The notes under the pieces are model-generated. The model worked only from the letters and a program-made list of their open reading frames with translations, was not told the DNA's origin and ran no database searches. A DNA stretch of 64,000 bases, taken from positions 4,488-68,487 of the forward strand of contig JAJRSW010000053.1 of the NCBI GenBank assembly GCA_024278595.1. The letters are read 5' to 3'. Source of the DNA: Fidelibacterota bacterium. GTDB lineage: Bacteria > Fidelibacterota > UBA8477 > JABMPR01. Position numbers and translations under genes: made by a program. This document shows positions 6,254-25,287 of this stretch, one piece after another. Numbering within the stretch: the first letter of the stretch is position 1; each line of letters starts with the position of its first letter.

Positions 6254-7815
6254 TGATGGATATTTCACATGTTGCCGGGATCAAACAAATTAGATGCGCT
6301 ATCTATACTAGGAAATCCACAGAAGAGGGTCTTGAACAAGAATACAATACTTTAGACGCCCAGTGGGATGCGTGTGAGAGTTACATCCAAAGCCAGAAGT
6401 CACGTGGTTGGATAACTCTACCTGTCCATTATGATGACGGTGGCTTTACCGGGGCTAATACTGAGCGCCCAGCTTTCAACCGATTACTCGAGGATATTAA
6501 AGCCGGAAAAATTGATACTATTGTGGTCTATAAAGTAGATCGGTTGAGTCGATCTCTGGCTGACTTTGCCAATGTCATGGATTTATTCGATAGGCATAAT
6601 GTCGCATTTGTGAGCGTCACTCAATATTTTGATACATCTTCTTCCCTTGGTCGAATGACACTCAATATCCTCATCACCTTCGCCCAGTTCGAGAGAGAAA
6701 TGATCTCTGAGCGCATTCGGGATAAGATAGATCGCAGCCGAAAAAAGGGTAAGTACATGGGTGGCCAGCCCGTGTTAGGATATGACGTTATCGAGAAAAA
6801 ATTAATCCCCAATGATCACGAAAGGTTTCAGATCAAGAAAATCTATGATCTATATCTGAACAACCGCTCAATCCGTGAAATAGCAGAGATGGTGCAAGAA
6901 TGGGGGTGGACCACGAAACGCTGGCAAACCAAACGAGGACATATGACGGGCGGCAAACCTCTATCCCCACAGGTACTCTACACCATTCTAAAAAATCCAA
7001 CATATGCTGGTAAAGTACGACACAACAAAAACATCTACGACGGTGAACATGAAGCCATCATCAAGCAACAAGTATTTGATGATGTACAAGCTCTATTGAA
7101 AAAGAATCGGAATAACTTGACCAATACAAGCAGGAAGAAATTTGACTCTATCCTGAATGGGATCCTGGTCTGTTCTCACTGTGGCTCTCGCATGATCAAA
7201 ACATATACATCCAAGCCCAACAAAAGATACAGCTACTATGTATGCCTTAAGGTCTCAAAATTTGGACGTAAACACTGCAGCAACCCGTCCGTGCCCGCGA
7301 ATAAACTGGATGAATTTGTAATAAAGCATATCCAGAAAATCACAAAGGACCCAACACTGCTCTCAGCTTTTCTGGATGAATTTCAGAACCAGAAAGAGAA
7401 TAGACTGAATGAAATTACGCATGAGATAAAAGCACTCACTGTCAAGCTTGCCAGTCATCGCTTGGAACGAGATCGTATCGGCCTTGATCCAAGTCTAGGT
7501 AGATATGATTCTATTGAAAATATCGAGAGTAATATCTCTCGAGCCAGTCTAAGAATTGAGCAACTCGGGTCCCAGAAGACAGCAATCGAGTCCACCGTTA
7601 TGAATGCCGGTGAAATCACCCAGATTCTCAGTCAATTTTATGGAGTATGGGATAAGTTATCTGTAAAAGAACAACACGAGATCATGGACCATGTTTTCGA
7701 ACAAATCTTTTGGGATGGAAAAAAGAAATCCATGGATTTCGAATACAGTCCACTGGGCTTGAGACTCCTATATGATAGAAAGGTCATTCAGAATGAGAAT
7801 CTCGACAAAAATTGA
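6250..7815 (+). CDS. large serine recombinase (phage/element integrase)
   Basis: Resolvase N-terminal catalytic domain (IYTRKSTEE...VYKVDRLSRS), a recombinase domain, a zinc-ribbon (CSHCGS...YYVC...C) and a C-terminal coiled coil. 521 aa. Confidence 0.85.
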   Translation: MMMDISHVAGIKQIRCAIYTRKSTEEGLEQEYNTLDAQWDACESYIQSQKSRGWITLPVHYDDGGFTGANTERPAFNRLLEDIKAGKIDTIVVYKVDRLSRSLADFANVMDLFDRHNVAFVSVTQYFDTSSSLGRMTLNILITFAQFEREMISERIRDKIDRSRKKGKYMGGQPVLGYDVIEKKLIPNDHERFQIKKIYDLYLNNRSIREIAEMVQEWGWTTKRWQTKRGHMTGGKPLSPQVLYTILKNPTYAGKVRHNKNIYDGEHEAIIKQQVFDDVQALLKKNRNNLTNTSRKKFDSILNGILVCSHCGSRMIKTYTSKPNKRYSYYVCLKVSKFGRKHCSNPSVPANKLDEFVIKHIQKITKDPTLLSAFLDEFQNQKENRLNEITHEIKALTVKLASHRLERDRIGLDPSLGRYDSIENIESNISRASLRIEQLGSQKTAIESTVMNAGEITQILSQFYGVWDKLSVKEQHEIMDHVFEQIFWDGKKKSMDFEYSPLGLRLLYDRKVIQNENLDKN

Positions 7816-9149: not shown

Positions 9150-10565
9150 TTAGTCTTTTACACAACGTACAGAGTGGCCACTTTTCTTGAAAGCGAACCC
9201 GCGAGAAATACGTGACTCACTATAAATCAGTGTATGATTCCAACCATAGCCACTACTGCTCTCAGTCGCTGTCCAAAAGTACCCACTGATTGTAATGTTA
9301 CCGTAATCACCAGTAGTACCATCATAGCGATAACCTCCAGGTAACGCAGTAAAGCCACTACTATTATTTCCATTACCTCCATTATACCACCCACTGGTTG
9401 ATTTTAATTTATCACCTTCATCTGTACCGCGCCAACTGCTACCCTGATCTGCCTGCTCTTGGCTCATCCCCAGAGCCATCTCAAGCTCTTTCCACTCGTC
9501 ATCTGTGGGTACATGCCAACCTTCTGGGGCAATATTCCGACTGTCATTTAATGCATACCAGTTATACAAAGCACCATAGGTGTCTACCTCATTTTCTGCA
9601 TTATTACTATAAATACAGTAGGCTTCGGTTGTCAGGTTAGCCCAAGCAGCATTATCCGTTACATGTGTGACTTCAGTACCATCTCGATAACGGGTTACTT
9701 TTAGGTTCTCTGCCATCCATGTTTGAGTTCCTATAATAACAGTGCTGTAAACATTACCATCAATATCTGTTACTATTACTGGTGATTGAAAATCGCCAGT
9801 AACAGTTTGTGTGCCTGTCGGTCCGATCGTGATTTCAACTGCTGCTGTACCTAGTGGAACTTCATTTGGTCCAACCCATACCAAGTTAATAGTATAGTTA
9901 TTATCGGCTCCAGCTATGACGGTAACTGTTGTGTCTCCAGTATATAGCAAGTATTCCGCTCCCCACATATCTCCATAGGCATCTAACTTAATATTATGCT
10001 CTACGCCCGTACTCAGATAGTCATAGCTCAGACTTAACGTGGAACCTACTCCACTCTGTGCTTCGAAAGAAGAGTCAGCTACCAGGGCCGCATCCACCAA
10101 TAATTCACAGCGACTCACTGAATCAGCTATCCCAACAAAATTTGCCACCAACATAGAATACTTCGATGTTAATGAAAGGCTTACATCCACAGTGTTTGTT
10201 GGTACAACTGTGAAGGTGGTGGAGTCTGAATGAATGACAATATCATTTACATCCCGAGATTCTGCTTTTACGCTCCAGGAGCCTTCTACTAAGTCTGTAT
10301 AGCTGTTACTTACAATAGTCTGAGAATTGCCACTAACGGCTACTGTATCCCTGACGGTGGCTACACCATTGTTTAGTTCAATGTAGAGGTTCTCCAGGTC
10401 AATAGTGGCGGCCTTACTCAAACTACCAACATTGCTTAAATGGATAGATAGATTTACTTCACCTAAAGTCGTTATGGCTAGCGGTTCAGTAGAGTTATTA
10501 CAGCCTTGAACCAGCATTAAAATGGCACCCATAGCAAGTATTGAAGCTCTTGTGTTTTGCATCAC
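9150..10565 (-). CDS. surface lipoprotein with C-terminal Fibrobacter succinogenes major paralogous domain (Fib_succ_major)
   Basis: Lipoprotein signal (AILMLVQGCNN). The C-terminal ~190 aa carry the hallmark motifs of the domain: TQTWMAENLKV, ALYNWYA, EGWHVPTDDEW, GFTALPGG, FWTATE, and the terminal SGHSVRCVKD. Confidence 0.65.
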   Translation of the reverse strand: MMQNTRASILAMGAILMLVQGCNNSTEPLAITTLGEVNLSIHLSNVGSLSKAATIDLENLYIELNNGVATVRDTVAVSGNSQTIVSNSYTDLVEGSWSVKAESRDVNDIVIHSDSTTFTVVPTNTVDVSLSLTSKYSMLVANFVGIADSVSRCELLVDAALVADSSFEAQSGVGSTLSLSYDYLSTGVEHNIKLDAYGDMWGAEYLLYTGDTTVTVIAGADNNYTINLVWVGPNEVPLGTAAVEITIGPTGTQTVTGDFQSPVIVTDIDGNVYSTVIIGTQTWMAENLKVTRYRDGTEVTHVTDNAAWANLTTEAYCIYSNNAENEVDTYGALYNWYALNDSRNIAPEGWHVPTDDEWKELEMALGMSQEQADQGSSWRGTDEGDKLKSTSGWYNGGNGNNSSGFTALPGGYRYDGTTGDYGNITISGYFWTATESSSGYGWNHTLIYSESRISRGFAFKKSGHSVRCVKD

Positions 10566-11254: not shown

Positions 11255-11297
11255 AGAATAGCCCCCAGGAACCGAAGTTCCCAAGGGCTTGGGGGGG
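11255..11297 (-). terminator. terminator hairpin downstream of tRNA-Val
   Basis: Minus-strand GGAAC-UUCG-GUUCC hairpin (UUCG tetraloop, extended by flanking G/C pairs) followed by a U-rich tract. Confidence 0.4.
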
Positions 11298-11372
11298 TGG
11301 GCGCTGAGGGAGTCGAACCCCCGACCCCCTGCTTGTAAGGCAGGTGTTCTAAACCAACTGAACTAAGCGCCC
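11298..11372 (-). tRNA. tRNA-Val (anticodon TAC)
   Basis: Manual cloverleaf on the minus strand: acceptor GGGCGCT/AGCGCCC, D-arm GTTC..GAAC, anticodon stem CCTGC/GCAGG with loop CTTACAA (anticodon TAC), T-arm GGGGG-TTCGACT-CCCTC, discriminator A. CCA is not encoded. Confidence 0.85.
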
Positions 11373-11965: not shown

Positions 11966-13156
11966 TTAATCAACAGCGTCCTGCTTTAGAATTGATGCGG
12001 TTAAAGGTCGGTAGTATTGCCAAAAGAATGATCTGGTATCCAAAACATTCCTGCTATTATACAAAAAAGATTGGAACCAGTGGATCCACTTGAAATAAGC
12101 ACTGACTGGTGTTATCTCATTCCGGGAAAAATCTCCTGCAAAATAGTAAAAGCGATAGTCCGGACCCTCATGAGCCAAAACAGCCGGAAAAACAGGTGAA
12201 AGATCCTGAGCCGCCAGTACGGAATCACCGGCTTCGGTGACCGGCAAATGGAAAGTTGAAACCACAGTATTCTCACGAGTAGGTGAAAAAACCATATCAA
12301 ACCAGGATATATAATTGACTTCAGCAGGAACATGAAACTTTTCCTGGTAAAAAGGACGAGTCTGAATGACCGGAACCTTGCGTTCTAACAAAGATCCACT
12401 CTCCAAAATGATGATATCATCATTAGAACTCACCAACACCAGCCCTGATTGGATATAGGGCCAGGATTTTCCGGTCTGCTTCCGATGAAGATCAAATATC
12501 CAAGCTGGTACTCCGGCTCCCTTGGTGGAATCCAACGAATCAAAATAACGACCGCTCCATCCTGTCCATAGCAGACCGAATTCCTTCAGGAAACGCCTGC
12601 GAGCATTTGGAGGGGTTGATTCACCTAAAATATTAAATTCCGCAATAATCAGTTTTTCTCTGACTTTCATAGCTTCAAGCAAATCCAGATCCCGTTCATA
12701 AAGCCCACCATATAATAAGCGATTGGGCGTCTGCGGTTGAGCAAAGAAATCGTTGTAATAAACACCGTACGTATCAGCAAAATAAACAGCATCTATAGTT
12801 TCAGCTAAACTGTCCACAGCACTTTTTGAATAATTACTGATATCTTTTATTAAATAATTATCAGCCGCCAGGGGATAAAAACCGTAGTAATCACAGCCCC
12901 TGGAATATTTATTCCCATCTGATTTGGTGATCTTTTCATTGTTCAAGACCCAGAATAAGGATAGTTGGTTTTGTGAATCACTATCAGGCACTGACTTATT
13001 CAGCACAAAGATATCCATTGGGAAATCCGGTGTCGCAAACCAACTCAGCACCATTATTACTGGCGTCACTATTAAGCTAAAGACCAGGTAACGAAGCAGT
13101 CTTACCTCAAACGGCTGTTTGATATATTTAATGAGTTTTCTGGTTTTCACCCGCAT
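11966..13156 (-). CDS. membrane-anchored periplasmic protein of unknown function (last gene of the EPS operon)
   Basis: Single N-terminal TM/signal anchor (LVFSLIVTPVIMVLSWF) and a large Trp/Tyr-rich soluble domain with no motif I recognise. It follows the TPR-porin gene after a 9-bp gap. Confidence 0.55.
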   Translation of the reverse strand: MRVKTRKLIKYIKQPFEVRLLRYLVFSLIVTPVIMVLSWFATPDFPMDIFVLNKSVPDSDSQNQLSLFWVLNNEKITKSDGNKYSRGCDYYGFYPLAADNYLIKDISNYSKSAVDSLAETIDAVYFADTYGVYYNDFFAQPQTPNRLLYGGLYERDLDLLEAMKVREKLIIAEFNILGESTPPNARRRFLKEFGLLWTGWSGRYFDSLDSTKGAGVPAWIFDLHRKQTGKSWPYIQSGLVLVSSNDDIIILESGSLLERKVPVIQTRPFYQEKFHVPAEVNYISWFDMVFSPTRENTVVSTFHLPVTEAGDSVLAAQDLSPVFPAVLAHEGPDYRFYYFAGDFSRNEITPVSAYFKWIHWFQSFLYNSRNVLDTRSFFWQYYRPLTASILKQDAVD

Positions 13157-13165
13157 ATTCGATCC

Positions 13166-14683
13166 TTAGAATCGGCGGGAATAGGAAATGTAGAACCCCG
13201 TATCACCTCGGTATGCCGCTTTACGCACTTCCACATTGGCAAAGCTGAGAACACTTTTGATCAGGTTCAAGTCATCCAGTTTCCACTGATAGGTCATGTT
13301 CAAATGGCGAGAGCTAAGATAACTGACTTCCACGGCTCCCAGACTAATATCAGGCGACTCTCCCTGCCCGAAACTAAGCTCCAGGTATGTCTCTGCATCC
13401 CTGATATATCGTCGGCACTGGAAATTCCAGGCTCTGGAAAATGATACCTCCTGGGGTGTCAGGAAGCTACGGATGCTAAACCAGTAGCTCCGCCAATACT
13501 TACTTGCGGATCCAGTAAAAATATTCAGGTCAAGAGCCTCTAAATGCACAGACCGATAACCTGCAGATACTTCAAATGCCTGGGGCAGAACTTGAAACAC
13601 CTCGGCTCCAGTTCTGTAGCTTGGGAAAAGTTGGGTCCCGGAATAGCCCAAAGCAAGATAGGCATAGGTACCTTTTCTGATTGTCGGGTATGATTCCAAC
13701 TCAAACTGCATCCCTGACTGCCCGAAACGGCGGGCAAAATTGAACCGGGCAATGACAGGTCCAAAGCTCAATCTTTGTTCAAGCTCGATTCTTAATTGAT
13801 GCCAGGGCTCAAGCGTGGTCCGGCCCACCAACACCTGCCATGGTGTCCTGGTACCAGCCAACCTGTTATAGCTGTATCCTATGCTTACCTTTCTAGCACG
13901 CCCCTGTCGAGATAGGTCGGCCAGTATTGCAGTCGCTTTAGCATGACCAGGATCCTGCTTTAGCACTTGTTGAAACGCTAATTGAGACGCTTTAAACTGC
14001 TCCAGCTTAAGTAAACATACTCCTCGTTTATAAATAAATTCCGTATTTAGCGGATTTAGTTGAAGACCTTGTTCCAGTAGCTCAAGCGCTGCTACATAGT
14101 TTCCACTCCAGATATAGACATCAGCCAATGCGCTGCGGGCATCTTCGAAATAGATCTGTTCATCCAATACGCGATGGAGTTGCACAGCAGCACTATCATA
14201 TTGCCCTTCCCAGGCATATAAACGACCCAGGAAGATACGGGTTTCATAATGATCAGTTGTCAGGTCAAGACCCCGCTGGCAAATGCGGATGGCCAGTTGA
14301 TTATTCTTTTCAACAAAGGCCACTTCTCGAGCATATTGGTAAAGAGAATCTGAATTGTTATTCAGTCGATAATCTCTAAAAATACTACTCTCAGCCAAGC
14401 TAACCTTCTGGGCCGTACTGTCCCCTTCGCCCATTTCTGCAAAACAGGGTATTACAATAAATATGACAGCTAATAACCGAATGAATTTTATAGTGCCGTG
14501 CTTCGAGAACACTTCAACGAGCCCAGTGTGGCACCTCAGCCCGTGGAACATCCCGCCACCGATGGGGACCTGCTTGAGGATGGCCGCCCTGCGGTAGTCA
14601 CTGAGCACGGCTGAAGTGCTCTTGAAGGGTTTGAAAGCAAAATTATACACCAATGACCTCATATCAATCATCAACTTCCTCAT
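13166..14683 (-). CDS. TPR-repeat plus C-terminal beta-barrel outer-membrane protein (PgaA/BcsC/PelB-like exopolysaccharide export porin). True start probably an internal Met near 14554.
   Basis: Internal signal peptide (KFIRLLAVIFIVIPCFA), multiple TPR-like repeats (YYQYAREVAF.., LYAWEGQYDSA.., AKATAILADL..), then an amphipathic beta-strand-rich C-terminal half ending in an aromatic residue. ATGA overlap with the GT2 stop. Confidence 0.55.
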   Translation of the reverse strand: MRKLMIDMRSLVYNFAFKPFKSTSAVLSDYRRAAILKQVPIGGGMFHGLRCHTGLVEVFSKHGTIKFIRLLAVIFIVIPCFAEMGEGDSTAQKVSLAESSIFRDYRLNNNSDSLYQYAREVAFVEKNNQLAIRICQRGLDLTTDHYETRIFLGRLYAWEGQYDSAAVQLHRVLDEQIYFEDARSALADVYIWSGNYVAALELLEQGLQLNPLNTEFIYKRGVCLLKLEQFKASQLAFQQVLKQDPGHAKATAILADLSRQGRARKVSIGYSYNRLAGTRTPWQVLVGRTTLEPWHQLRIELEQRLSFGPVIARFNFARRFGQSGMQFELESYPTIRKGTYAYLALGYSGTQLFPSYRTGAEVFQVLPQAFEVSAGYRSVHLEALDLNIFTGSASKYWRSYWFSIRSFLTPQEVSFSRAWNFQCRRYIRDAETYLELSFGQGESPDISLGAVEVSYLSSRHLNMTYQWKLDDLNLIKSVLSFANVEVRKAAYRGDTGFYISYSRRF

Positions 14684-16113
14684 TTTCCACCCTTCGGTGA
14701 AGTAACAAATCCTTTACGTTCCATTTTACCCCAGCCTTCTACTTTGCGCAGTGCAGAAATAAATCCGTGGATACGCCAATATATTGTTAATTGTCTGTAA
14801 CCAAAATTTTCAATGATCGCCAGCATGAAAAGTTTCAGTAGATCAGTAAACCGCGGGTAGCGTCTAAAGGTCATTTCCTCCAGGGCCACCGAGAATATGG
14901 ACAGAGCAACACCGAACATAAATGCGGCCATAAAAAAGGCTATTATGTAAGAAGTTGAAACCGTACCCCAGATGACAGAGATAAGAAATACAAAATATCC
15001 GGGAAGCTCAATCGCTGGCCCAAGCATCTCCAATAAATAAAAATAAGGGAATGCTACCAGGCCAATTCGACCATAGCGGGGATTCATAAACATCACTCGA
15101 TGACGTGTGAGTACTTCAAACAGTCCTCGTTGCCATCGGTCCCGTTGGCGGCCTAATATTTTTATCGATTCCGGACATTCTGTCCAGGCTACAGGATCAG
15201 GAACAAAGGAAATATTATATGGAATTTTATTCTCCAGGAAATGACGGTGAAGCTTCACTACCAATTCCATATCCTCTCCCACTGTATCAGTGGCATAGCC
15301 GCCTACATCAACAACTGCGGAACGCTTGAATACACCAAAGGCTCCTGAGATAATCAGCGTTGATTTCAAGGCACTCCAGCCCATCCGACCTGAGAGGAAG
15401 GCTCTGAGATATTCAAGTACCTGATATTTAGCCAGCAAATTCCGCGGCAAACGAATCTCCTCCACAGAACCCGACCTAATGGTACAATCATTCACAATAC
15501 GAATAATGCCACCCGCTGCCAGGGTGCTGGCATCCTCAAGAAAAGGTCTTACAATTCTGATCAAGGCATCCCGCTCAAGCAGGGTATCGGCATCCATGGC
15601 ACAAAATAGAGGTGTACTGCAAAAGTTTACTCCACCATTGAGAGCATCTGCTTTTCCACCATTTTCCTTATCCAATAACCACAGATTGGGTTGATATTTA
15701 GACCTGTATACCCCGCGCACTTTGGCTGACTTCAGTTTTGATAAGGCTGACCGTTGGGCCGGTTCCATATCAAAAGCCTCAATGAGAACTTCAAGTGTGC
15801 TATCTTTTGAGCCATCATTGATAATGATAACTTCATATTCCGGATAATTAAGCGCCAGGAGCGCTTTCGTCGATTCAATACAGGTCGCTTCTTCATTGTA
15901 GGCTGGAGCCAGCAAGGTCACAGGAGGCACACCTGCCTTGGCAATCAGTGCATTGAGATCAACCGCCTTCATGCGGCGGGCATAGGTTCTAAGTGCAAAA
16001 AAAGCAAATATGGTCGTGGTTAGATAAAAGAAGTTAAGTGCCAGAAAATAGAATAACACAAGATAGTTAAAACTTTCTAGGATGATCTGGATTATGCGAA
16101 TTAGAACTGTCAT
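14680..16113 (-). CDS. processive family-2 glycosyltransferase (PgaC/IcaA/NodC/BcsA-like polysaccharide synthase)
   Basis: N-terminal TM helices, a GT-A core with DGS (NDGSKDST), DAD (AMDADT) and Q/RxxRW (QRDRWQRG) motifs, and C-terminal TM helices. No PilZ domain. Confidence 0.8.
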   Translation of the reverse strand: MTVLIRIIQIILESFNYLVLFYFLALNFFYLTTTIFAFFALRTYARRMKAVDLNALIAKAGVPPVTLLAPAYNEEATCIESTKALLALNYPEYEVIIINDGSKDSTLEVLIEAFDMEPAQRSALSKLKSAKVRGVYRSKYQPNLWLLDKENGGKADALNGGVNFCSTPLFCAMDADTLLERDALIRIVRPFLEDASTLAAGGIIRIVNDCTIRSGSVEEIRLPRNLLAKYQVLEYLRAFLSGRMGWSALKSTLIISGAFGVFKRSAVVDVGGYATDTVGEDMELVVKLHRHFLENKIPYNISFVPDPVAWTECPESIKILGRQRDRWQRGLFEVLTRHRVMFMNPRYGRIGLVAFPYFYLLEMLGPAIELPGYFVFLISVIWGTVSTSYIIAFFMAAFMFGVALSIFSVALEEMTFRRYPRFTDLLKLFMLAIIENFGYRQLTIYWRIHGFISALRKVEGWGKMERKGFVTSPKGGK

Positions 16114-16115
16114 TA

Positions 16116-17210
16116 TTATTTCTCAGCCAAGACCTGACGAATAATAGCAGCTCGGGAATGCTCAGATTGGAGAGCCGCTTCAAGCAGATCCCTTCTTTGA
16201 AGCTGGTTCAAGGTTCTCGCCGCATGGAGAGCGACCCACGTTGATTTATCATCCAGAGCTTGGGTGATGATAGCACCATCATCCTGGTTCCCAATTTGCC
16301 CCAGAGCATGAAGTGCGTGGATCCGGACAATAAAATGTGGGGACTTTAAATGGTCTATTATTATTGCCCGGTGGCGCGGAATCCCAACTTGCCCCAGTAA
16401 GCGGAGCAAAGCGGCCTGGAGTTCAGAATCGATTCCATTTCCCAGCAATTCAGCAGCCACATTTCCTGATTCAAGATCACCAATGCTACGGAGAGCCTCG
16501 GTACAAGCAATGCGCACCCGATTGCTTTCTTCAGAGCTGGATAATGTCTTTCGCAAATCCGGCGCGGCTCCACTGCCCATTTCTGTTAACATGGATGATA
16601 AAAAATTCATACTCCACTGATCAAACATACTGAGCACCGGCAAAATCACCTTACAGTGCTGGGGATATTCAGGTCTGGCGAGTGCCCGGGCTGCACTCAT
16701 GGTTACAATGGGTGATGGATCCTTTAGGGCTGATTTAATAGCCTCGATGTATTGTGGGAATCCAAAGGTCCCCAGGATATTTACATTCCGGGCTCTTAAT
16801 TCCGGATAACCACCTTTTAACCCCTTGGCGAATCGTGCCAGATATGGCTGGGCCAAAGCTTTGACCAGCTTGAGTTCGTGGCCCTGTAGGCGTTCAGCAA
16901 ACCGATGTAAATATCTTACGAAAAAAAGTTGGTTGTGTCGACTAACTTTGATGGCCGGAGGTTTGTCATCTTCATCCGACATAACTATGGTGATCAAGAT
17001 TTTCTCCCAGGTAGATTCCAACTTTTTTAATCGGGATGCTCGCAAATTATTTTTTATGCGCAAGATCATAACACCGGTTGATAGAATAATGGTCAGGGCC
17101 AGGATGATAAAAATGGCCATAATGATAATTTGCATGGCCAGTGCTTCACTGGGTATTTCCAGATAGTAGAGTTGTGCTTTCTCCCATAACAGATTTATCT
17201 GATTCAGCAT
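16116..17210 (-). CDS. HEAT-repeat (PBS-lyase type) inner-membrane protein
   Basis: N-terminal TM helix (IIIMAIFIILALTIILSTGVMIL) followed by at least five HEAT/PBS-lyase-like repeats (..SPIVTMSAARALARP.., NRVRIACTEALRSIGD, PHFIVRIHALHALGQIG, KSTWVALHAARTLNQL). Start placed at Met MLNQ to avoid overlapping the REC gene. 2-bp gap to the GT2 gene. Confidence 0.6.
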   Translation of the reverse strand: MLNQINLLWEKAQLYYLEIPSEALAMQIIIMAIFIILALTIILSTGVMILRIKNNLRASRLKKLESTWEKILITIVMSDEDDKPPAIKVSRHNQLFFVRYLHRFAERLQGHELKLVKALAQPYLARFAKGLKGGYPELRARNVNILGTFGFPQYIEAIKSALKDPSPIVTMSAARALARPEYPQHCKVILPVLSMFDQWSMNFLSSMLTEMGSGAAPDLRKTLSSSEESNRVRIACTEALRSIGDLESGNVAAELLGNGIDSELQAALLRLLGQVGIPRHRAIIIDHLKSPHFIVRIHALHALGQIGNQDDGAIITQALDDKSTWVALHAARTLNQLQRRDLLEAALQSEHSRAAIIRQVLAEK

Positions 17211-17235
17211 CAGTCGAAATTGCTGGAGAATTGCA

Positions 17236-17604
17236 TCAAGACTCAAGACAAGTCTCCAGAGTCCTGAAAAAATGAGCCGGGTCAAACGGTTTATGCAGAA
17301 CTGCCAGTGCCCCAGCTTTCTTAAACTGCTGTTCAAGATCAGGGTCTTTGCGTGCCGTAAGAATCACTACCTGGGTGGCTTGTAGTAAAGATTCATCCTG
17401 CAACTGCTGTAACAAATCCAGCCCTTTTGCATCAGGCAGGAGATAGTCAAGCAGCAATACGTTGATATCTCCCCGTGTGAGACTTGCCCACCCTGCTGAT
17501 GCAGTTTCTGCTTCTAGCACGGTGTAGCGTCCAGACCTCTCTAGAATCATTTTAACGATGAATCTAATATCCTCATCATCATCAATGATTAACAGCTTTT
17601 TCAT
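17236..17604 (-). CDS. single-domain response regulator (CheY-like receiver)
   Basis: MKKLLIIDDDEDIRFIVKMILE...LLLDYLLPDAKG..ILTARKD. REC domain only, 122 aa. 4-nt overlap with the upstream GGDEF gene. Confidence 0.8.
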   Translation of the reverse strand: MKKLLIIDDDEDIRFIVKMILERSGRYTVLEAETASAGWASLTRGDINVLLLDYLLPDAKGLDLLQQLQDESLLQATQVVILTARKDPDLEQQFKKAGALAVLHKPFDPAHFFRTLETCLES

Positions 17605-19133
17605 TTTAAAAGACGATGTACGCGAGCCAGGAGTTCAGTCGGGCTGAAAGGTTTTAGCATATAATCATTTGCACCCAGCTGCAGCCCCCTGGCAATATCA
17701 TTTTCCCGGCCCATTGAAGTCAGCATGATAATTGGTGTATTCTGGTTGAGAGACTGCTTTCTTATTCGCTGCAATAATTCAAACCCATCCATTCCAGGCA
17801 TTTTGACATCCGTGATCACTAAATCGTATGGATTATTGCTGGCAGATTCAAAGGCCTCATCTCCATGGAGATAGTGACTGGTCTTAAACCCGGCTCGTTC
17901 TAGACGATGAATGATAAATTCTGCTGTAAGATCATCATCTTCTGCAAGCAGAATTGATCTCTGACGGGGGATTACTTTTTCATGTTCAGTCAATACCTGG
18001 TTGCGTCCGGATTCCTTGGCTTTATACATAAGCTGATCAGCTACTGAGAAAGCTGCTTTAAGGGGCAGGTTGTGGTCCACATCAACTACTCCGGCGGAGA
18101 AGGTAATTCTCAACTTTTCTTTGCTGCTGTGCAATATGTAAGCATTATTGTTGAGGTGGTCCAGAACTTTATCAATGGTCTTTTTGGCACTGGCAGCATC
18201 AGAATCTGGAAACAGAATGGTGAATTCCTCTCCACCCCAACGAGCAACAATATCAGAATCCCGTAATAGCTGTTTCATTACCTCAGTGATATGTTTCAAA
18301 ACCTCGTCACCTGCCAGGTGGCCATAGCGATCATTGATGGATTTAAAATGGTCGAGGTCAAGCAATCCAAGACTTAATTTTGAATCGCCTTGCTGAGCTA
18401 AATTTTGCGAGTTCTGGTAATGCTCATTAAACCCTGCCCGATTCATTAGACCGGTAAGACTATCTAGCTGAGCCTCCCGGTGAACTTTTCTGGCGCTATT
18501 AATTGTTGCTGCAACATGAGTTGATAAGAGCCCGGGATCCACGGGTTTTTCAAAATAATTGTCAGCACCTAAAGCATAACACTCTGCTTTAACTTGTGGA
18601 CTGCTTTTGGCTGAAAGAACGACAACAGGAATAGAATTGGTTGTGTAGCTCTCTTTTAACTCCACCAGGAAATTACGCCCGTCCGTATCAGGCAGGATCA
18701 AATCAAGGATAATGAGCGAGACATCCTCCTGTTTAAGTAATTCTCGTGCTGCTGTAGCCGTTTCAGCCAAGAGCACATGATACCCTTGTTTTTCAAGAAT
18801 GGTGCTTAAAATAAATCGGATCTCTTCACTATCGTCAACTACCATAATTACTTCGCAGCTCCCCCGGCCTGCTTCAGAGAGCGAACGTAGATAGTTGATC
18901 AGATCTGCCAGCCTGGATTTGAGTTGATCATGGGAAGCCTCTTCCACTGCTTCAGCCAGCTCCGAAATTTTCGGAAACCCATAGGTTCTCCCTGATCCCC
19001 GCAAGGTGTGAGCAATCCGTTGAGCTGATATGCCAGCTTCCGCATTTTCCCGATTCAGGGCTGTTTGAGCGGCGCTAAGGGCTTCTATGCGTGAGCCAAG
19101 TTTTCGAATATATTCATTCTGATAATCTTCCAT
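17601..19133 (-). CDS. diguanylate cyclase with HPt-REC-GGDEF-REC architecture
   Basis: N-terminal HPt-like motif (RIAHTLRGSGRTYGF, similar to the CheA P1 / HPt HxxKG motif), a REC domain (VIMVVDDSEEIRF..), a GGDEF domain (LTGLMNRAGF..RWGGEEFTILFPD) and a second C-terminal REC (ILLAEDDDLTAEF..DVKMPGMDG). Confidence 0.85.
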   Translation of the reverse strand: MEDYQNEYIRKLGSRIEALSAAQTALNRENAEAGISAQRIAHTLRGSGRTYGFPKISELAEAVEEASHDQLKSRLADLINYLRSLSEAGRGSCEVIMVVDDSEEIRFILSTILEKQGYHVLLAETATAARELLKQEDVSLIILDLILPDTDGRNFLVELKESYTTNSIPVVVLSAKSSPQVKAECYALGADNYFEKPVDPGLLSTHVAATINSARKVHREAQLDSLTGLMNRAGFNEHYQNSQNLAQQGDSKLSLGLLDLDHFKSINDRYGHLAGDEVLKHITEVMKQLLRDSDIVARWGGEEFTILFPDSDAASAKKTIDKVLDHLNNNAYILHSSKEKLRITFSAGVVDVDHNLPLKAAFSVADQLMYKAKESGRNQVLTEHEKVIPRQRSILLAEDDDLTAEFIIHRLERAGFKTSHYLHGDEAFESASNNPYDLVITDVKMPGMDGFELLQRIRKQSLNQNTPIIMLTSMGRENDIARGLQLGANDYMLKPFSPTELLARVHRLLK

Positions 19134-19139
19134 TGAACA

Positions 19140-22100
19140 TCACCCCTGAAAGATCTCATTTATCTGATGCCTGATCTCTATCTCCAGGTTATCAGATTTG
19201 AGTATAATGGGTATCGCTTCGGCTTTAAAAAACAACTCTTCAGTCGGTGACAGTTCTTTTCCGGTTACAACAAGAACTGGAATAGCATCGTAACGTCTAT
19301 TTCGTCTTAATATACCTAGAAACTCCTGTCCATTCATTCCCGGCATCATTAAATCTAATAGGATAAGATCAGGCATGGAAGTTTGAATGATCTCCAAAGC
19401 TTCAGAACCACTTTCGGCAGATCGAATTTCTACTCCGAGACCTCCCACATAACTGGATAGAGTCAACCGCATGTCGGGATCATCTTCCACTATTAGAATA
19501 CGTCTTCCTTCAATTGCAAGATTACGCTTGATAGCCCACAATAATTGCTGACGATGGATCGGCTTGGGAATAAAATCCACAACACCTGAAAGCCGTCCAC
19601 GATATTCACGGGCGATGATACTGACAACAACAACTGGAATGCGCTTATACTCTTTTTTTGCTTTCAGAGCCCTTAAGAACTTTTCGCCATTAATCAACGG
19701 CATCTGCAGATCGAGGGTGATCAGATCGGGACGATGCCTTCGTATGGCCTTGAAGGCTTCTTTTGCACTATCTGCAATATCAAGTTTACAACCAGTCTCG
19801 GATAAATAGTGCTTAAGTAAGGTTTGGGAATCATCATCATCATCGACAATCAAAATTCGACGACCTCGCAGGTCATCAAAAGGCAGGGTTGTCCTGCGAG
19901 TTCTACTGCGTGTTGCTCCTGCATTCCGGACTTTATTGTTCTCGACTTGTGTACTTATATCCTGTTCAGAAACTTTAATGATAAACGTGGAGCCGCGTCC
20001 GACTTCACTTTCAACTTCCAGGATACAGCCCATGATTTGACACATCCGACGACTAATGGATAGCCCTAGGCCCGTTCCCCCATACTTCCGTTGGGTCCCA
20101 GATTCTACTTGCGTAAATTCGTCAAATATCTTCTCAAGACGATCCTGCGGGATGCCGATACCGGTGTCGGCTACCCTGATCTCAGAAACATGATTGTTTT
20201 CCTGGTTGGCAATAACAGTAATAGTTATTGCCCCTTCATCAGTAAATTTAATCGCATTGCTGATCAAATTTAGCAGGATCTGTCTTATTTTTCCCGGATC
20301 GGTGACAAGGGGCAGCAGATTGTCTGGAATTTTAGCGATCAACTCAACTGGTTTGCCCTGCAATTGGCTCTCAACCATCTGAATGAGATCAAGTATTTGT
20401 TCACCAATATCCAGCTCAACAAGTTCCAGATCCATACGGCCAGATTCGATCTTGGACAAATCCAGGATATCGTTGATCAATCGTAGTAAATGGGTGCCAT
20501 TATCTTGAATTCGCTCTAGATATAGAATGTCTTGTTTATTCAAACGCTGGGCAGAGTTTTTTAACAGAATATTTGAGAAGCCAATAACGGAGTTAAGTGG
20601 CGTGCGAAGTTCATGACTCATATTTGCCAGAAAATCACTTTTGGTCTGATTGGATTCCTCAGCCACAGATTTTGCTAATTTCAACGCTTCCTCGGCTTGC
20701 TTGCGACTGGTAATGTCAAGGATAATGCCTAAAAACCCTGTGATCGAGCCGCTGGTATCCTGGAGTGCCGTAACTGCTGAATTCACCGTTAGATGACTGC
20801 CGTCTTTGCGTACGTAAGTCCATTCATGTTCAACCTGGCCACCTAATCGGGCTAAGACAACAAAGGTTTCAAATCCGTCAATCTCCCGCTCTAACTGAGT
20901 TGACAATTCACGAGCCCATTTTTCTACTTCTGCCTGTAGATGAAAAATAGAGGTAGATTTTCCCACGACTTCTTCTGATGTGTACCCCAGCATATTTTCA
21001 GCACCAGGGTTAAAAATAGTAATACCCCCTGCTAGATCTGTGGCAATGATGGCTACCTGAGTCGCCGAATTAAATACATTTTTTAAGCGCAGATGAGCAT
21101 TGGCCAGGTTTTCTTCGGCATGTTTCCGAGCGGTGATATCCATGACCGTTCCGGAAAAGTAATGATGCGTACCCGCACTCACTTCACTTACACCCAGTTC
21201 AATATATATTTCTTCTCCGGTCTTGGTGAGAGCTGAGACCTCCCTGCTGGTGCCAATGAACTCTGTTAACTCGGTGTGTAAATAGTGTTGTAGCGAGTTG
21301 TCATCCTCAGCGTGGGTCGAGTCATACATGAGATGACGGACATTTTTTCCAATTACCTCATCAGCATTATAACCAAAGATGTTCTCTGCGGCTGCGTTAA
21401 AGGATTGGATCATCCCCTCGTTATCAATGAGAATAACACCCACCATTGATGAGTTGATAATTGATTTATAACGTTCTTCGCTTTGTGATAATTCCTGACT
21501 CGCTTGCTCACGTTCCAAAACCCGACTCACCCACTGGCCCATCAACCGAACAAGATCCTCATCTCCTCCAGTGAAACGTTCTGCCCGAGGACTCGTCTTG
21601 GAAAAACTCAGTGTACCATAAATTTCACCTTGTATATGGATGGGAACGCCAATATAAGACTCAAGCTGGAAAGTCTCCCAACATGGGTGGCTAGCGTAGG
21701 GTGATTGGGACATCTCATTTATAGTCACCACTGCATTTTCCTCCAATGTCATGCTGCAGTAGGTGTCAGCTAATTTAAATACCTGGTTTTGAGCCAAAGT
21801 TGATGCTTCGGGGTAAAAGTACAACACTTTGAATTCATCATCTTTAATGTGACTGATTATGCCCAGGTCCATTTCCAGGGTCGCGGCGCCGGCTGCCAGT
21901 GTTTCTTCTAATTGTTCATTAACCGTTAGGTGGCTGGTGGCCGCTAGTTCGTATAAAATTCGAATTCGCTTTTGCTGAAGCTTAAGGTCATTGTTCAGGT
22001 TTGTAAGATTCTCTTCATAATGGATACGCTCAGAAATATCTCGACTCATCGCCAAAATCCGACCTTCGCCATCATTTCCGCCAGGATTAAAAAAGCGGGT

Positions 22101-22703
22101 GGCAGATTCTAACCAGATGTAGTGTCCATCTTTATGTCTGAATTTGTACGTGGATCTTACTGTTTCTTGGTGTTTGAGAATTTTTCGGTGTTCGAGTTGC
22201 ACTATCCCAAGTTGATCCGGGTCAATAAAATCATATATGGACCGACCCTCCAGCTCTTCCGGCTCATAGCCTACGATTTGTTTGGATCTCTGGGTCGCAA
22301 ACAGGAATCGCCCCTCCAGATCATGTTCTGCCAGCATATCGGTTGCTTCCTCAGTCAGAATTCTATAACGATGTTCACTGGTTTTCAGCCTGAGCAAATA
22401 GCGTTCTCGTGACCCGGCTATGGCCGGTGCCCACAAAAATAATCCAATGAGCAACAGCAAGGGGCCGCCAATTTGCCCCATGAGTTGTTTCAGTATATTT
22501 TGGAAAAAATTATTCGAAAGAAACGGATAAACGCCATTAGCAAGATCTAGGACACTACCCATCCACATGAGCCCCAAAGCAAATACAACGAAATACCAGC
22601 CTCTTTGGACCCGGAATTGATTTCTCTCACCCAAAATGGTAACAAAAATGAAAAGAACTCCAAAAATTAGAGCAAGCAGTATTTCAGCAATCAGGCTTAA
22701 CAA
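19140..22703 (-). CDS. multi-PAS/GAF hybrid sensor histidine kinase with two C-terminal receiver domains
   Basis: N-terminal TM helices, several PAS and GAF segments, a HisKA H-box (ANMSHELRTPLNSVIGFSNIL), HATPase_c (NLISNAIKFT, GTGLGLSISRRM) and two REC domains (RILIVDDDDDSQ.., RILIVEDDPDMR..). 1187 aa. Confidence 0.9.
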   Translation of the reverse strand: MLSLIAEILLALIFGVLFIFVTILGERNQFRVQRGWYFVVFALGLMWMGSVLDLANGVYPFLSNNFFQNILKQLMGQIGGPLLLLIGLFLWAPAIAGSRERYLLRLKTSEHRYRILTEEATDMLAEHDLEGRFLFATQRSKQIVGYEPEELEGRSIYDFIDPDQLGIVQLEHRKILKHQETVRSTYKFRHKDGHYIWLESATRFFNPGGNDGEGRILAMSRDISERIHYEENLTNLNNDLKLQQKRIRILYELAATSHLTVNEQLEETLAAGAATLEMDLGIISHIKDDEFKVLYFYPEASTLAQNQVFKLADTYCSMTLEENAVVTINEMSQSPYASHPCWETFQLESYIGVPIHIQGEIYGTLSFSKTSPRAERFTGGDEDLVRLMGQWVSRVLEREQASQELSQSEERYKSIINSSMVGVILIDNEGMIQSFNAAAENIFGYNADEVIGKNVRHLMYDSTHAEDDNSLQHYLHTELTEFIGTSREVSALTKTGEEIYIELGVSEVSAGTHHYFSGTVMDITARKHAEENLANAHLRLKNVFNSATQVAIIATDLAGGITIFNPGAENMLGYTSEEVVGKSTSIFHLQAEVEKWARELSTQLEREIDGFETFVVLARLGGQVEHEWTYVRKDGSHLTVNSAVTALQDTSGSITGFLGIILDITSRKQAEEALKLAKSVAEESNQTKSDFLANMSHELRTPLNSVIGFSNILLKNSAQRLNKQDILYLERIQDNGTHLLRLINDILDLSKIESGRMDLELVELDIGEQILDLIQMVESQLQGKPVELIAKIPDNLLPLVTDPGKIRQILLNLISNAIKFTDEGAITITVIANQENNHVSEIRVADTGIGIPQDRLEKIFDEFTQVESGTQRKYGGTGLGLSISRRMCQIMGCILEVESEVGRGSTFIIKVSEQDISTQVENNKVRNAGATRSRTRRTTLPFDDLRGRRILIVDDDDDSQTLLKHYLSETGCKLDIADSAKEAFKAIRRHRPDLITLDLQMPLINGEKFLRALKAKKEYKRIPVVVVSIIAREYRGRLSGVVDFIPKPIHRQQLLWAIKRNLAIEGRRILIVEDDPDMRLTLSSYVGGLGVEIRSAESGSEALEIIQTSMPDLILLDLMMPGMNGQEFLGILRRNRRYDAIPVLVVTGKELSPTEELFFKAEAIPIILKSDNLEIEIRHQINEIFQG

Positions 22704-23069
22704 AATTCACCTGCTTTCTACCGTTATTTCATATAATGACAATTCCACCTCCATGTGGCTATAATTCCTGTATATTTTCCACTGTTACGATACTTCGCTG
22801 AACTCAGTGCGAGCAGTTGCTGAGCCCACCGAAGCAGGCTTTATATTTTAAGTTTGGCGACCTTGCAAAAGCATTTGGAAAAACACAGAATATACCCTAT
22901 AACCATTAAAAACCGCTACTTATGATATATACCTAAGACCTTAAATAGCAATATTGTGCGCCATTTCTACAAGCGGTTTCCGAGCTTGATAAATAATACG
23001 GAGTATGATATTAATGAACTTATATGCATTTGAGATGGATAGTTGTATTTGGTGGCGTCAGCGTCCATT

Positions 23070-23459
23070 TCATCCTTCCCCAGATACTGATTGCCGGGGC
23101 GTCATGTAGGACTTTACTAAATCTTTGAAATGATCCATGTCGAGTATCGGTTTACTGTAATAGTCATCAAAACCTTTCCCAAGATATTTTTCTTTATCGC
23201 CCATCATTGCGTGCGCTGTTAAAGCAATGACAGGGAGATTCTTTAGCTGTACTATCTTACGAATTTCCTGGAGTACCGTCACCCCATCCATACCTGGCAA
23301 AGCGATATCCAGAAGAATAAGTTCAGCTTGGCAGTCTGGCAGACCAGCCAATGCATCAGGACCATTTTCGAAGGTTATAATCTCATATTCGGAACCTAAA
23401 ATTGCCTCGATCAGAAGCAGATTATCAGGATTGTCTTCAACCACTGCTATTTTCTTCAT
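23070..23459 (-). CDS. CheY-like single-domain response regulator
   Basis: MKKIAVVEDNPDNLLLIEAIL..ILLDIALPGMDG..ALTAHAMMGDKEKYLGKGFDDYYSKP. 4-nt overlap with the upstream HPt gene. Confidence 0.8.
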   Translation of the reverse strand: MKKIAVVEDNPDNLLLIEAILGSEYEIITFENGPDALAGLPDCQAELILLDIALPGMDGVTVLQEIRKIVQLKNLPVIALTAHAMMGDKEKYLGKGFDDYYSKPILDMDHFKDLVKSYMTPRQSVSGEG

Positions 23460-23842
23460 ATTTTCTCCAACTCCTCTTTCAGGTAGGCGGTAAAAGTTTC
23501 CTCAGCGACCAATAATTCGGAAGCCACCCTTGAAATCACTTCCATATTTTTTTCCATGGCGGCCTGTTCCAGTTTAACCGAGAGGTTCGAAACCCCCATT
23601 CCACCTAGATTTCCAGTACTGGCAATAAGTGAGTGGGCGGTATTTTCGATGACTGCATAATCTGTGCGTTCAATAGCATGGGAAATCGCTTGTATTTTAG
23701 CAGGTGTTCTTTCCAAATACATCTGGATGAGCCCAATTATAAGTTTGTTTCCGCCTAATTCTTTCAGGCGTTTTAATACGGCAGGCGCTATTTCGTGCTG
23801 GCTCATTCCAGACCCTTTATTCCCACTGTCAAATGAAATCAT
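23456..23842 (-). CDS. HPt (histidine phosphotransfer) domain protein
   Basis: 128 aa with the conserved HPt helix motif TAHSLIASTGNLGGMG. Paired with the CheY-like gene. Confidence 0.6.
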   Translation of the reverse strand: MISFDSGNKGSGMSQHEIAPAVLKRLKELGGNKLIIGLIQMYLERTPAKIQAISHAIERTDYAVIENTAHSLIASTGNLGGMGVSNLSVKLEQAAMEKNMEVISRVASELLVAEETFTAYLKEELEKI

Positions 23843-24060: not shown

Positions 24061-25287
24061 CTAATCATCATCTTCTTCTTCCACCACCCTCAGTATCTTT
24101 AAACCTCCCAAACCTCCCGCAACATAAAGGTAATTTCCTTTGACTTTGACGTGATTAACTGACTGAAGATCATCAAACCGGAAGCTGCCAATCATCTGGA
24201 TGTCATCAACTTCACAATTCCTGGAATTAAATTTATCTCTTGACCAGGCTACATAAACGCCTGCCTCCCCGTTGGACATGTATAAAGTTTTGCCACTGGT
24301 TGTGGCTGCATTGGCAACGGTTACACTTTCGTCAAGATCAGGTATCACCGGAGGAGGAATTTCTTCGATGACTTCCCCATTTTCCAGGCAAATAATCTGG
24401 ACACCTCCATTACCCAAAGCCACAACTGCTTTACGTCGATAAACTTCGATGGTCGATTTAGAAAAAGGGATATTAGCGCCTGAAAGTGAAAATTCCTCAA
24501 GCAATTCACCACTTTCATAATTAAATGTCAGAAGCCTGGCTGGTGTTCCGGCGATTATTGCGATCTCTTCGTCATCAGTACCAACACCTCTGGCGTCTTC
24601 CACCGGATATGAGAATTCAATTTCATGGTCTGATAACCTGATTACCGTTACCTGTCCTCCTTCAGCCCCGGATGTCACAAACAGATGGTGCGAGGATACC
24701 GCAACGTCCGTAGCAGCCCAACTGGGGATGTCAAAGGTCTCTGTCTCGTCAGTTAAAACCCCCGACCTTATGCGCACCCTCTCAACCACAGCTGGCGAAT
24801 CGAATTCAGCTCGATCTGTGGCCATGGTGAGATAGAGATAGTTGTTCTTGTAGGCCAGTCCGTTTACATCTGAATCTGTAAAATACATGGATGAGATCAG
24901 TTCTGGATCTTCTTCATCCCTTACATTAAAAACATCTACCGCCCCCAGGAAAGGTTCACCGATCATATTGTATGCCACATAGGCCTTATTATCTTTCACA
25001 TAAACATCGGTAGCCTGGAGGACCTCTCCACTGACTGTCGGTGATTCAACTTCAGCAATCAACACCAGATTAATCGGATTTTGACTTGCTTTGATCAAAC
25101 CAGTGTCCTGGATACTGGTATCCAATTCAACAACTTCATTCATATAGGTAATTCGGCTTGACAATATTTGGAGATCGTTCTCAAGTGCAATACGAGTATT
25201 TTCAGGAGGCTCGGTGCATTGATTTAGGAGGCCGGCTAGCAGAAAACTGCCCAAGACTGCAATTGTGTTTGATCTTTTTTTGTTCAT
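24061..25287 (-). CDS. LVIVD-repeat beta-propeller lipoprotein
   Basis: Lipoprotein signal (LLAGLLNQCTEP). Repeated NYLY(V/L) ...GGL.IL/V units (NNYLYLTMATD.., GNYLYVAGGLGGLKILRV) typical of LVIVD surface-protein repeats. Confidence 0.45.
   Translation of the reverse strand: MNKKRSNTIAVLGSFLLAGLLNQCTEPPENTRIALENDLQILSSRITYMNEVVELDTSIQDTGLIKASQNPINLVLIAEVESPTVSGEVLQATDVYVKDNKAYVAYNMIGEPFLGAVDVFNVRDEEDPELISSMYFTDSDVNGLAYKNNYLYLTMATDRAEFDSPAVVERVRIRSGVLTDETETFDIPSWAATDVAVSSHHLFVTSGAEGGQVTVIRLSDHEIEFSYPVEDARGVGTDDEEIAIIAGTPARLLTFNYESGELLEEFSLSGANIPFSKSTIEVYRRKAVVALGNGGVQIICLENGEVIEEIPPPVIPDLDESVTVANAATTSGKTLYMSNGEAGVYVAWSRDKFNSRNCEVDDIQMIGSFRFDDLQSVNHVKVKGNYLYVAGGLGGLKILRVVEEEDDD

Follow-up and report, generated by a model that had tools for sequence, protein, structure and literature searches.

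Synthase-dependent polysaccharide systems, among them those for cellulose, poly-N-acetylglucosamine (PNAG), alginate, Pel and Nfr, are the textbook link between cyclic di-GMP (c-di-GMP), a second messenger, and the biofilm matrix, and to our knowledge almost everything learned about them comes from Proteobacteria. Here we describe a locus from a bacterium of the Fidelibacterota (hereafter, Marinimicrobia), an abundant clade of the ocean. The locus occupies positions 11966-23842 of a 64,000-nucleotide stretch of contig JAJRSW010000053.1 (assembly GCA_024278595.1, contig positions 4,488 to 68,487; hereafter, the window), and its nine minus-strand genes probably encode a previously undescribed type of synthase-dependent machine for polysaccharide synthesis and export. 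A preliminary description of this DNA, made from its letters alone, had read the locus as an uncharacterised one of synthase-dependent type, with a processive membrane glycosyltransferase of family 2 (GT2), an outer-membrane protein combining tetratricopeptide repeats (TPRs) and a beta-barrel, and non-canonical partners. We arrive at the same reading and found no description of the locus in the literature searched, where no paper links YaiO, HEAT and GT2 components. A systematic survey of synthase-dependent operons mentions neither Bacteroidetes nor HEAT proteins (PMC7112194).

The nine genes are co-oriented and tightly packed, and all are present as follows, from the 5' end of the set to its 3' end.

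23456..23842, minus strand: stand-alone Hpt phosphotransfer protein, 128 aa (Pfam Hpt, E 1.5e-6)
23070..23459, minus strand: single-domain receiver (REC), 129 aa, paired with the Hpt gene (Pfam Response_reg, E 1.5e-21)
19140..22703, minus strand: membrane hybrid histidine kinase, PAS-GAF-PAS-PAS-HisKA-HATPase-REC-REC (Pfam)
17601..19133, minus strand: predicted Hpt-REC-GGDEF-REC diguanylate cyclase (Pfam and NCBIfam, with motifs in the translation)
17236..17604, minus strand: single REC directly upstream of the HEAT gene (Pfam Response_reg, E 1.6e-22)
16116..17246, minus strand, start uncertain: HEAT protein, predicted to pass the inner membrane once (HEAT_2, E 2e-25)
14680..16113, minus strand: predicted processive membrane GT2 synthase, PgaC-like (Pfam GT2 families, NCBIfam, motifs)
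13166..14683, minus strand: predicted outer-membrane protein with TPRs and a YaiO-family barrel (PF19413, TIGR04390, TPR families)
11966..13156, minus strand: X396, a 396-aa protein, predicted to be periplasmic and anchored at its N-terminus (AlphaFold2 fold; no family match)

The Hpt and REC genes of the upstream pair overlap by 4 nt, and a gap of 366 nt separates them from the kinase gene. From there on the genes nearly touch: 6 nt lie between kinase and cyclase, the cyclase and REC genes overlap by 4 nt, 2 nt lie between HEAT and GT2, the GT2 and porin genes overlap by 4 nt, and 9 nt lie between porin and X396. This agrees in coordinates and spacing with the preliminary description, whose domain calls on each product were all confirmed by Pfam and NCBIfam hidden Markov model (HMM) searches. 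Those searches likewise returned no PilZ, MshEN, polysaccharide deacetylase or BcsB among the matches of the nine products, as it had said. Two gene starts deserve comment. The listed HEAT start, TTG 17336, implies a 101-nt overlap with the REC gene, whereas the in-frame TTG 17246 gives a 376-aa protein close to the roughly 378 aa of its homologues; we therefore moved the start to TTG 17246, with ATG 17210 as an alternative. The true start of the porin probably lies downstream of ATG 14683, given a signal-peptide-like stretch at residues 65-82.

The NDGS, DAD, GED and QRDRW motifs of the GT2 align to the catalytic motifs of BcsA (4hg6), and its translation has hydrophobic segments at the N- and C-terminal ends; these correspond to the D, DxD, (T/G)ED and QxxRW motifs and the flanking transmembrane helices of a processive inner-membrane GT2. 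With these motifs and its likeness to PgaC the enzyme is not of the dolichol-phosphate or lipopolysaccharide-core type, an outcome that the preliminary description had allowed for. Its best characterised relative is Escherichia coli PgaC (28% identity over 320 residues, E 7e-30), and its top NCBIfam match is TIGR03937 PgaC_IcaA (E 1e-42), at 146 bits against a family cutoff of 422, so that assignment as a PgaC equivalog is rejected. Window and Brevibacillus orthologues are 44% identical over their full length, compared with 28% to PgaC, which sets the GT2 orthologues apart as a group of their own. Judged by these comparisons, the protein is a processive membrane-embedded synthase and not a PgaC orthologue.

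The resemblance to PgaABCD/IcaADBC extends beyond the synthase with its processive motifs: both have a small or auxiliary membrane partner beside the synthase, diderms add a TPR and barrel exporter, and some lineages have a link to c-di-GMP. The locus differs in lacking PgaB/IcaB and PgaD/IcaD, in a porin of the YaiO rather than the PgaA family, in a HEAT protein and a GATase1-like periplasmic protein as partners, and in having a receiver domain as the conserved regulator. It is nevertheless conceivable, if unlikely, that we are looking at a divergent PNAG (Pga/Ica) system, in which the GT2 makes poly-beta-1,6-N-acetylglucosamine, the porin corresponds to PgaA, and the HEAT protein takes over from PgaD as c-di-GMP-dependent activator. 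Activation by c-di-GMP is known for PgaC-PgaD, which has no canonical receptor domain (PMC7112194), and a cyclase is linked in the window locus; with PgaC_IcaA as top match and 28% identity to PgaC, these points fit such a system, but the score of the synthase is far under the PgaC cutoff, and its orthologues group apart from PgaC. Neither a PgaB-type deacetylase/hydrolase (GH153) nor PgaD is present among the nine products. The porin scores 17 bits with the PgaA equivalog model (cutoff 367), and profile comparison by hhalign aligns the TPRs only. On these grounds we reject the porin as PgaA and the locus as a member of the Pga systems.

The porin matches the YaiO barrel family (PF19413, E 9e-47; TIGR04390, 119 bits with a cutoff of 32) and TPR families, and ends in Phe; at the level of families this is the make-up of a periplasmic TPR scaffold joined to an outer-membrane barrel. 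A TPR and barrel exporter is also found in BcsA-BcsB-BcsC, whose synthase shares the aligned catalytic motifs. By analogy, BcsB resembles X396 in being an anchored periplasmic subunit beside the synthase, carbohydrate-binding and of flavodoxin-like character, and BcsG is comparable in role to an alkaline-phosphatase-superfamily transferase of Bacteroidota loci (see below). The locus differs from Bcs in having no PilZ and no match to the BcsB family, another family of barrel, and an extra, putatively cytoplasmic HEAT subunit. Assignment of the GT2 as a Bcs synthase was rejected, since it reaches 54 bits with the CelA equivalog domain, whose cutoff is 699, and Pfam matches to PilZ and BcsB are lacking.

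In Nfr of E. coli, c-di-GMP activates a GT2 that carries MshEN, and NfrA and YbcH complete the system (10.1101/2021.10.01.462733). NfrB-NfrA-YbcH and our locus both combine a GT2, an outer-membrane protein and a periplasmic auxiliary protein with a dedicated local cyclase (10.1101/2021.10.01.462733). The paired proteins are unrelated by BLASTP (E 0.07, 0.18 and 0.27 for GT2/NfrB, porin/NfrA and X396/YbcH), profile comparison with NfrA aligns one TPR only, and MshEN has no match, so membership of Nfr was rejected too. Finally, the yaiO-yaiP-yaiS cluster of E. coli, itself uncharacterised, has a YaiO-family barrel near a membrane GT2 (YaiP matches the window GT2 weakly, E 1e-9); its YaiO has no TPR region, and HEAT and X396 genes are absent. 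In E. coli K-12 (380069-384616, locus L085), yaiO has as neighbours yaiX, an acyltransferase pseudogene interrupted by IS2, the GT2 gene yaiP, and yaiS, which encodes a putative deacetylase, a neighbourhood that looks like a decayed small polysaccharide locus around the YaiO barrel.

We found a synthase with these two partners and this outer-membrane pore in no described system. For X396, said in the preliminary description to fit no known family, neither Pfam nor NCBIfam gave a match, and a profile search of PDB sequences was likewise empty. The protein is 99% identical to one from a Marinimicrobia metagenome-assembled genome (MAG), and a full scan of 1.84 billion representative proteins places it in a family of 776 clusters at E <= 1e-3 (652 at E <= 1e-10); the named members that we saw are all annotated as hypothetical. 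The preliminary description had proposed structure prediction and a Foldseek search for X396, and an AlphaFold2 model built with 57 homologues is confident (predicted local distance difference test, pLDDT, 93; predicted template modelling score 0.90). The model opens with an N-terminal transmembrane helix; next come an alpha/beta/alpha domain and beta-rich elements, and a helix closes the C-terminus. Because the transmembrane helix has a positively charged N-terminus, we place the bulk of the protein in the periplasm.

The top Foldseek match of the model is the exopolysaccharide deacetylase Agd3, and its fold matches are the GATase1-like and ThuA-like structures that also define the CBM87 module of Agd3. 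Residues 141-364 of Agd3 have a GATase1-like fold with 3RHT and 4JQS as nearest neighbours, lack the Cys-His-Glu triad, carry conserved aromatics at the sheet's C-terminal edge, and bind oligosaccharides of N-acetylgalactosamine and galactosamine, which made them the founding member of CBM87 (PMC7229062). Judged by its model, X396 too has a GATase1-like alpha/beta/alpha fold without the triad. Its family has no invariant Cys or His, for which reason we rejected it as a glutamine amidotransferase, and instead holds K54, D128, Y130 and E173 invariant together with many Trp and Tyr; from the order of secondary structure elements in the model, K54, D128/Y130 and E173 would stand at the ends of parallel strands. 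The likeness to CBM87 of Aspergillus Agd3 thus comprises the fold, the nearest PDB neighbours, the lost triad, the conserved aromatics and a place in an exopolysaccharide pathway. Sequence identity to Agd3 is about 10%, so membership of a CAZy family cannot be claimed, and the two differ in that the Agd3 module sits on a deacetylase whereas X396 is stand-alone, membrane-anchored and has an extra beta-rich C-terminal half; the binding of glycans by X396 is suggested by the model. We think that X396 is probably a periplasmic glycan-binding subunit, and possibly also a glycan-processing one.

HEAT-repeat solenoids are protein-binding scaffolds. The AlphaFold2 model of the HEAT protein (pLDDT 92.6) has a long helix (residues 21-77) with one hydrophobic span, then an Arg/Lys-rich sequence, then about nine helix pairs. 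As the Arg/Lys-rich sequence follows the single hydrophobic span, the solenoid is predicted to be cytoplasmic. By Pfam the Bacteroidota protein between REC and GT2 is HEAT_2, and a Brevibacillus HEAT protein matches the profile of the window and Marinimicrobia HEAT proteins (hhalign E 2e-6).

We surveyed the distribution of these genes in one genome per GTDB species and, in a separate scan, in metagenomes. Relatives of X396 occur in at least 542 species genomes and at least 460 metagenome stretches; a scan of metagenomes with a single-protein query gave no matches. The positive genomes are mostly Bacteroidota (Pedobacter, Mucilaginibacter, Chitinophagaceae, Flavobacteriaceae and Cytophagales), with Marinimicrobia and Calditrichaceae in addition. 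We fetched 161 loci, most of them from Bacteroidota, and scored them with HMMs built from the window proteins. Conservation of gene order in relatives had been set beforehand as a test of the reading, and it is strong: among the 68 loci with complete 10-kb flanks (48 genome, 20 metagenome), GT2 is present in 64, HEAT in 64, YaiO in 65 and a single REC in 60 (45, 45, 45 and 41 of the genome loci; 19, 19, 20 and 19 of the metagenome loci). TPR-YaiO stands directly upstream of X396 in 66/79 genome loci, and even around distant X396 homologues, in Gramella and Algoriphagus, the order is REC-HEAT-GT2-TPR/YaiO-X396. The locus is therefore real, strongly conserved and widespread, and apparently an undescribed variant of synthase-dependent polysaccharide secretion. 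A Bacteroidota- or Marinimicrobia-type locus also lies on the MAG contigs L033, L066 and L007, whose labels (Caulobacter sp., Citrobacter freundii and Lentisphaeria) probably result from mis-binning or mislabelling.

Gene fusions and the Bacillota loci define the core of the system. A 1377-aa protein of Heliophilum fasciatum is composed of HEAT_2, GT2 and X396 in that order, and P0247 is a fusion of GT2 with X396. The operon of Brevibacillus choshinensis has GGDEF-REC, HEAT, GT2 and an X396 with an extension of about 700 aa, and in Brassicibacter the order is extended X396, HEAT, GT2. Because of the Heliophilum fusion, the adjacency in Brevibacillus and Brassicibacter, the 44% identity of the GT2s and the match of the HEAT profiles, we regard HEAT, GT2 and X396 as a conserved machine; on this sequence evidence the triad is the invariant unit, and the TPR-YaiO porin an addition of diderms and of the Fibrobacteres-Chlorobi-Bacteroidetes (FCB) group. 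The preliminary description had seen the HEAT protein and X396 as standing in for missing partners, a view to be refined: both belong to the core, being joined with the synthase in the Heliophilum protein, and X396 has the fold of a glycan-binding module and no obvious enzyme fold. Several X396 proteins and one GT2 carry a SPOR peptidoglycan-binding domain at the C-terminus (P0171, P0192, P0197, P0226; L059:11186-13513), and these fusions place the SPOR-fused ends of X396 and GT2 in the periplasm.

X396 itself varies in architecture. The C-terminal extension of about 700 aa is conserved in Bacillota (P0245 of Brassicibacter, P0262 of Brevibacillus and about eight more; L089, L091); it has no PDB or NCBIfam match and a faint one to GH113 (E 0.05), and may represent a glycoside hydrolase, perhaps of clan GH-A, joined to the glycan-binding subunit. 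The 840-aa protein P0216 (L092) has two tandem X396 modules, and P0283 and P0317 belong to a separate cluster of 508-520 aa in which X396 follows a region named an HPt domain by one source.

One further gene accompanies the Bacteroidota loci. A membrane protein of about 680 aa from the sulfatase family, most similar to the phosphoglycerol transferase OpgB and to LtaS, is linked in 57/68 full-flank loci (for instance L014:11547-13598 and L011:11146-14724, and in most Bacteroidota). In Chitinophagaceae it forms a fusion of about 1195 aa with the GT2, and neither the window nor the Marinimicrobia loci have it. The linkage suggests that the polymer of Bacteroidota receives a phospholipid head-group. 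It also agrees with a different view of the product, namely that GT2, HEAT and X396 make a glycan retained in the envelope, either periplasmic in the manner of osmoregulated glucans or linked to the wall, with YaiO serving another role. The presence of the triad in monoderm Bacillota without a porin, the SPOR domains on X396 or GT2 and three Marinimicrobia-type loci that lack a porin gene are all in keeping with this view. Monoderms can, however, release a polymer with no need of a porin, decoration with phosphoethanolamine or phosphoglycerol is also known from secreted polymers such as phosphoethanolamine cellulose, and the gene directly upstream of X396 is in most genome loci that for TPR-YaiO, where TPR plus barrel is the hallmark of synthase-dependent export. 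We hold retention in the envelope to be quite unlikely.

The signalling genes of the window suggest a phosphorelay. By Pfam, the kinase has three PAS domains, GAF, HisKA, HATPase_c and two RECs, and no Hpt of its own. The cyclase comprises Hpt (residues 17-84), REC, GGDEF (221-379; Pfam E 8e-43) and REC, and a GGEEF active site, with five residues upstream of it an RxxD I-site (RDSDIVARWGGEEF in the translation), predicts an active enzyme. Since the kinase lacks an Hpt and the cyclase begins with one, a path from kinase to receiver to Hpt to receiver is likely, and the N-terminal Hpt of the cyclase probably relays phosphate from the kinase. The single REC next to HEAT has D53, T83 and the Lys of a KPF motif. 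Across the 51 HEAT-adjacent receivers compared (the window REC and 50 others), the phospho-acceptor D53 is present in 51/51, D9 in 94%, and T/S83 and the Lys of KPF in 90% or more, so that acidic pocket, Asp, Thr/Ser and Lys together predict a phospho-accepting receiver. The absence of a DNA-binding domain from every linked regulator suggests that control is post-translational.

The rest of the circuit varies among lineages. Kinase, Hpt-REC-GGDEF-REC protein, REC and HEAT occur together in 10/10 Marinimicrobia-type loci (7 from the genome scan, 3 from metagenomes), with the kinase conserved upstream of the cyclase; in four Marinimicrobia-type loci the kinase has the Hpt-REC pair upstream of it. 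A linked GGDEF gene is confined to Marinimicrobia-type loci and two Bacillota genomes; the Bacteroidota loci, which make up most of the 161 fetched, have no GGDEF and instead have the single REC together with a CHASE3/PAS hybrid kinase that has REC-Hpt at its end, or with a separate Hpt protein. In most loci, then, a receiver is adjacent to HEAT: the single REC in Bacteroidota, GGDEF-REC in the two Bacillota, both in Marinimicrobia. Because this receiver is the broadly conserved element, phosphotransfer is the better supported common input. The preliminary description had called the machine c-di-GMP-coupled and c-di-GMP-controlled. Coupled is right for this Marinimicrobia operon and for some Bacillota, but not for the family as a whole; control has partial support, as no component has a recognisable c-di-GMP-binding domain. 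The kinase, cyclase and REC genes could be mere neighbours that regulate something else, with the synthase constitutive or controlled elsewhere, as the 366-nt gap before the kinase and the finding of a large kinase within 10 kb in only 28/68 full-flank loci might suggest, but the genes from kinase to X396 overlap or lie 2-9 nt apart (the uncertain HEAT start excepted) and a receiver directly precedes HEAT in most loci of three phyla, either as a protein by itself or at the C-terminus of a GGDEF protein, and we give this idea very little credence.

The receivers also hint at the history of the circuit. Bacteroidota single RECs score a mean of 84 bits against the C-terminal REC of the window cyclase, compared with 29 bits against the window single REC and 50 bits against a CheY control, and the C-terminal REC of the Brevibacillus GGDEF-REC protein also prefers that of the window cyclase (70 bits, 39% identity). 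Because the RECs of both groups score highest with the cyclase C-terminal REC, this similarity suggests that HEAT may originally have been partnered by a GGDEF-REC protein, which would have lost GGDEF in Bacteroidota.

Our preferred reading, that the locus encodes a synthase-dependent machine of its own type, can be put as follows. Motifs and homology indicate that the PgaC-like GT2 would polymerise a sugar-nucleotide in the inner membrane and thread the chain across it. From obligate adjacency and gene fusions we infer that it would do so in complex with two dedicated subunits: the one-pass HEAT protein on the cytoplasmic side, and the anchored X396, which would probably receive or guide the nascent chain in the periplasm in a role comparable to that of BcsB. 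In diderm FCB bacteria, family membership and gene order suggest that the chain would leave through the TPR-YaiO barrel. The likeness to PgaC and CBM87 makes an N-acetylhexosamine polymer our best guess for the product. Upstream, receivers of the PAS/GAF hybrid kinase would pass phosphate either to the Hpt carried by the cyclase or to the stand-alone Hpt protein, and from there to receivers that include the single REC adjacent to HEAT. In the model we favour, the phosphorylated receiver would dock on the HEAT solenoid and so gate the synthase, and in Marinimicrobia the same relay would also turn on local c-di-GMP synthesis. That HEAT is the signal-receiving subunit which gates the GT2 through a phosphorylated receiver, and in lineages with GGDEF-REC also binds or positions local c-di-GMP, is a tentative proposal, and rather doubtful in this full form.

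Several observations weigh against the reading as a whole or against parts of it. The polymer, its export, and the contacts of REC with HEAT and of HEAT with GT2 are deduced from gene order, fusions and folds. The C-terminal barrel of the porin is predicted from membership of its family, and since the porin profile aligns weakly to the single sequence of E. coli YaiO (hhalign E 0.13), that membership rests on the Pfam and NCBIfam models. In three Marinimicrobia-type loci (L007, L008, L009) X396 directly follows the GT2 and no TPR-YaiO gene lies within 10 kb; the operon therefore does not always include the porin. The linkage of the OpgB/LtaS-like protein in Bacteroidota would also fit a periplasmic or envelope-bound glycan in place of a free exopolysaccharide. 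Bacteroidota and Marinimicrobia HEAT proteins have few conserved positions in common, which makes a conserved docking surface less likely. Lastly, Pfam and NCBIfam find no PilZ, MshEN or degenerate GGDEF in the GT2, HEAT, REC, porin or X396 proteins, so that the predicted cyclase is linked to no recognised c-di-GMP receptor; a non-canonical site may exist.

The DNA around the operon was also examined. A tRNA-Val (anticodon TAC) lies directly downstream, beyond X396, followed by the strongest terminator-like hairpin of the region; a scan for sigma-70 promoters and terminators is little informative for this phylum, and this hairpin-plus-T after the tRNA was the one strong signal. Rfam found no riboswitch in the window, its matches being limited to the tRNA-Val and a bacterial RNase P RNA of class A (window 46548-46945, minus strand, 245 bits). 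Past the hairpin come a DUF2924 gene and one for a large serine recombinase, and together with the tRNA (window 11260-11372 and 5801-7815) this could be an element integrated at the tRNA-Val. Also downstream of the tRNA, a 471-aa protein (window 9150-10565, minus strand) contains the Fibrobacter succinogenes major paralogous domain (PF09603, E 2e-50), and just upstream of the Hpt gene is a 408-aa open reading frame without a Pfam match (window 24061-25287, minus strand).

If HEAT does gate the synthase through a phosphorylated receiver, the machine would be the first of synthase-dependent kind to be gated by a receiver with c-di-GMP as an optional input. This would also explain how the machine is controlled in Bacteroidota loci without GGDEF, whose single REC would be a remnant of an ancestral GGDEF-REC protein. 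The locus as such would define a further synthase-dependent family with its own set of subunits in soil and marine Bacteroidota, Marinimicrobia and Bacillota, and offers a candidate for the matrix, capsule or slime polymer of carrier Bacteroidota genera such as Mucilaginibacter, Pedobacter and Zunongwangia. It adds two new protein families, the HEAT partner and X396, that are present in culturable carriers. Moreover, what appears to be the same machine is coupled in some lineages just to a phosphorelay, in others to GGDEF-REC, and in others to both, a natural comparison for the evolution of second-messenger control over polysaccharide synthases.

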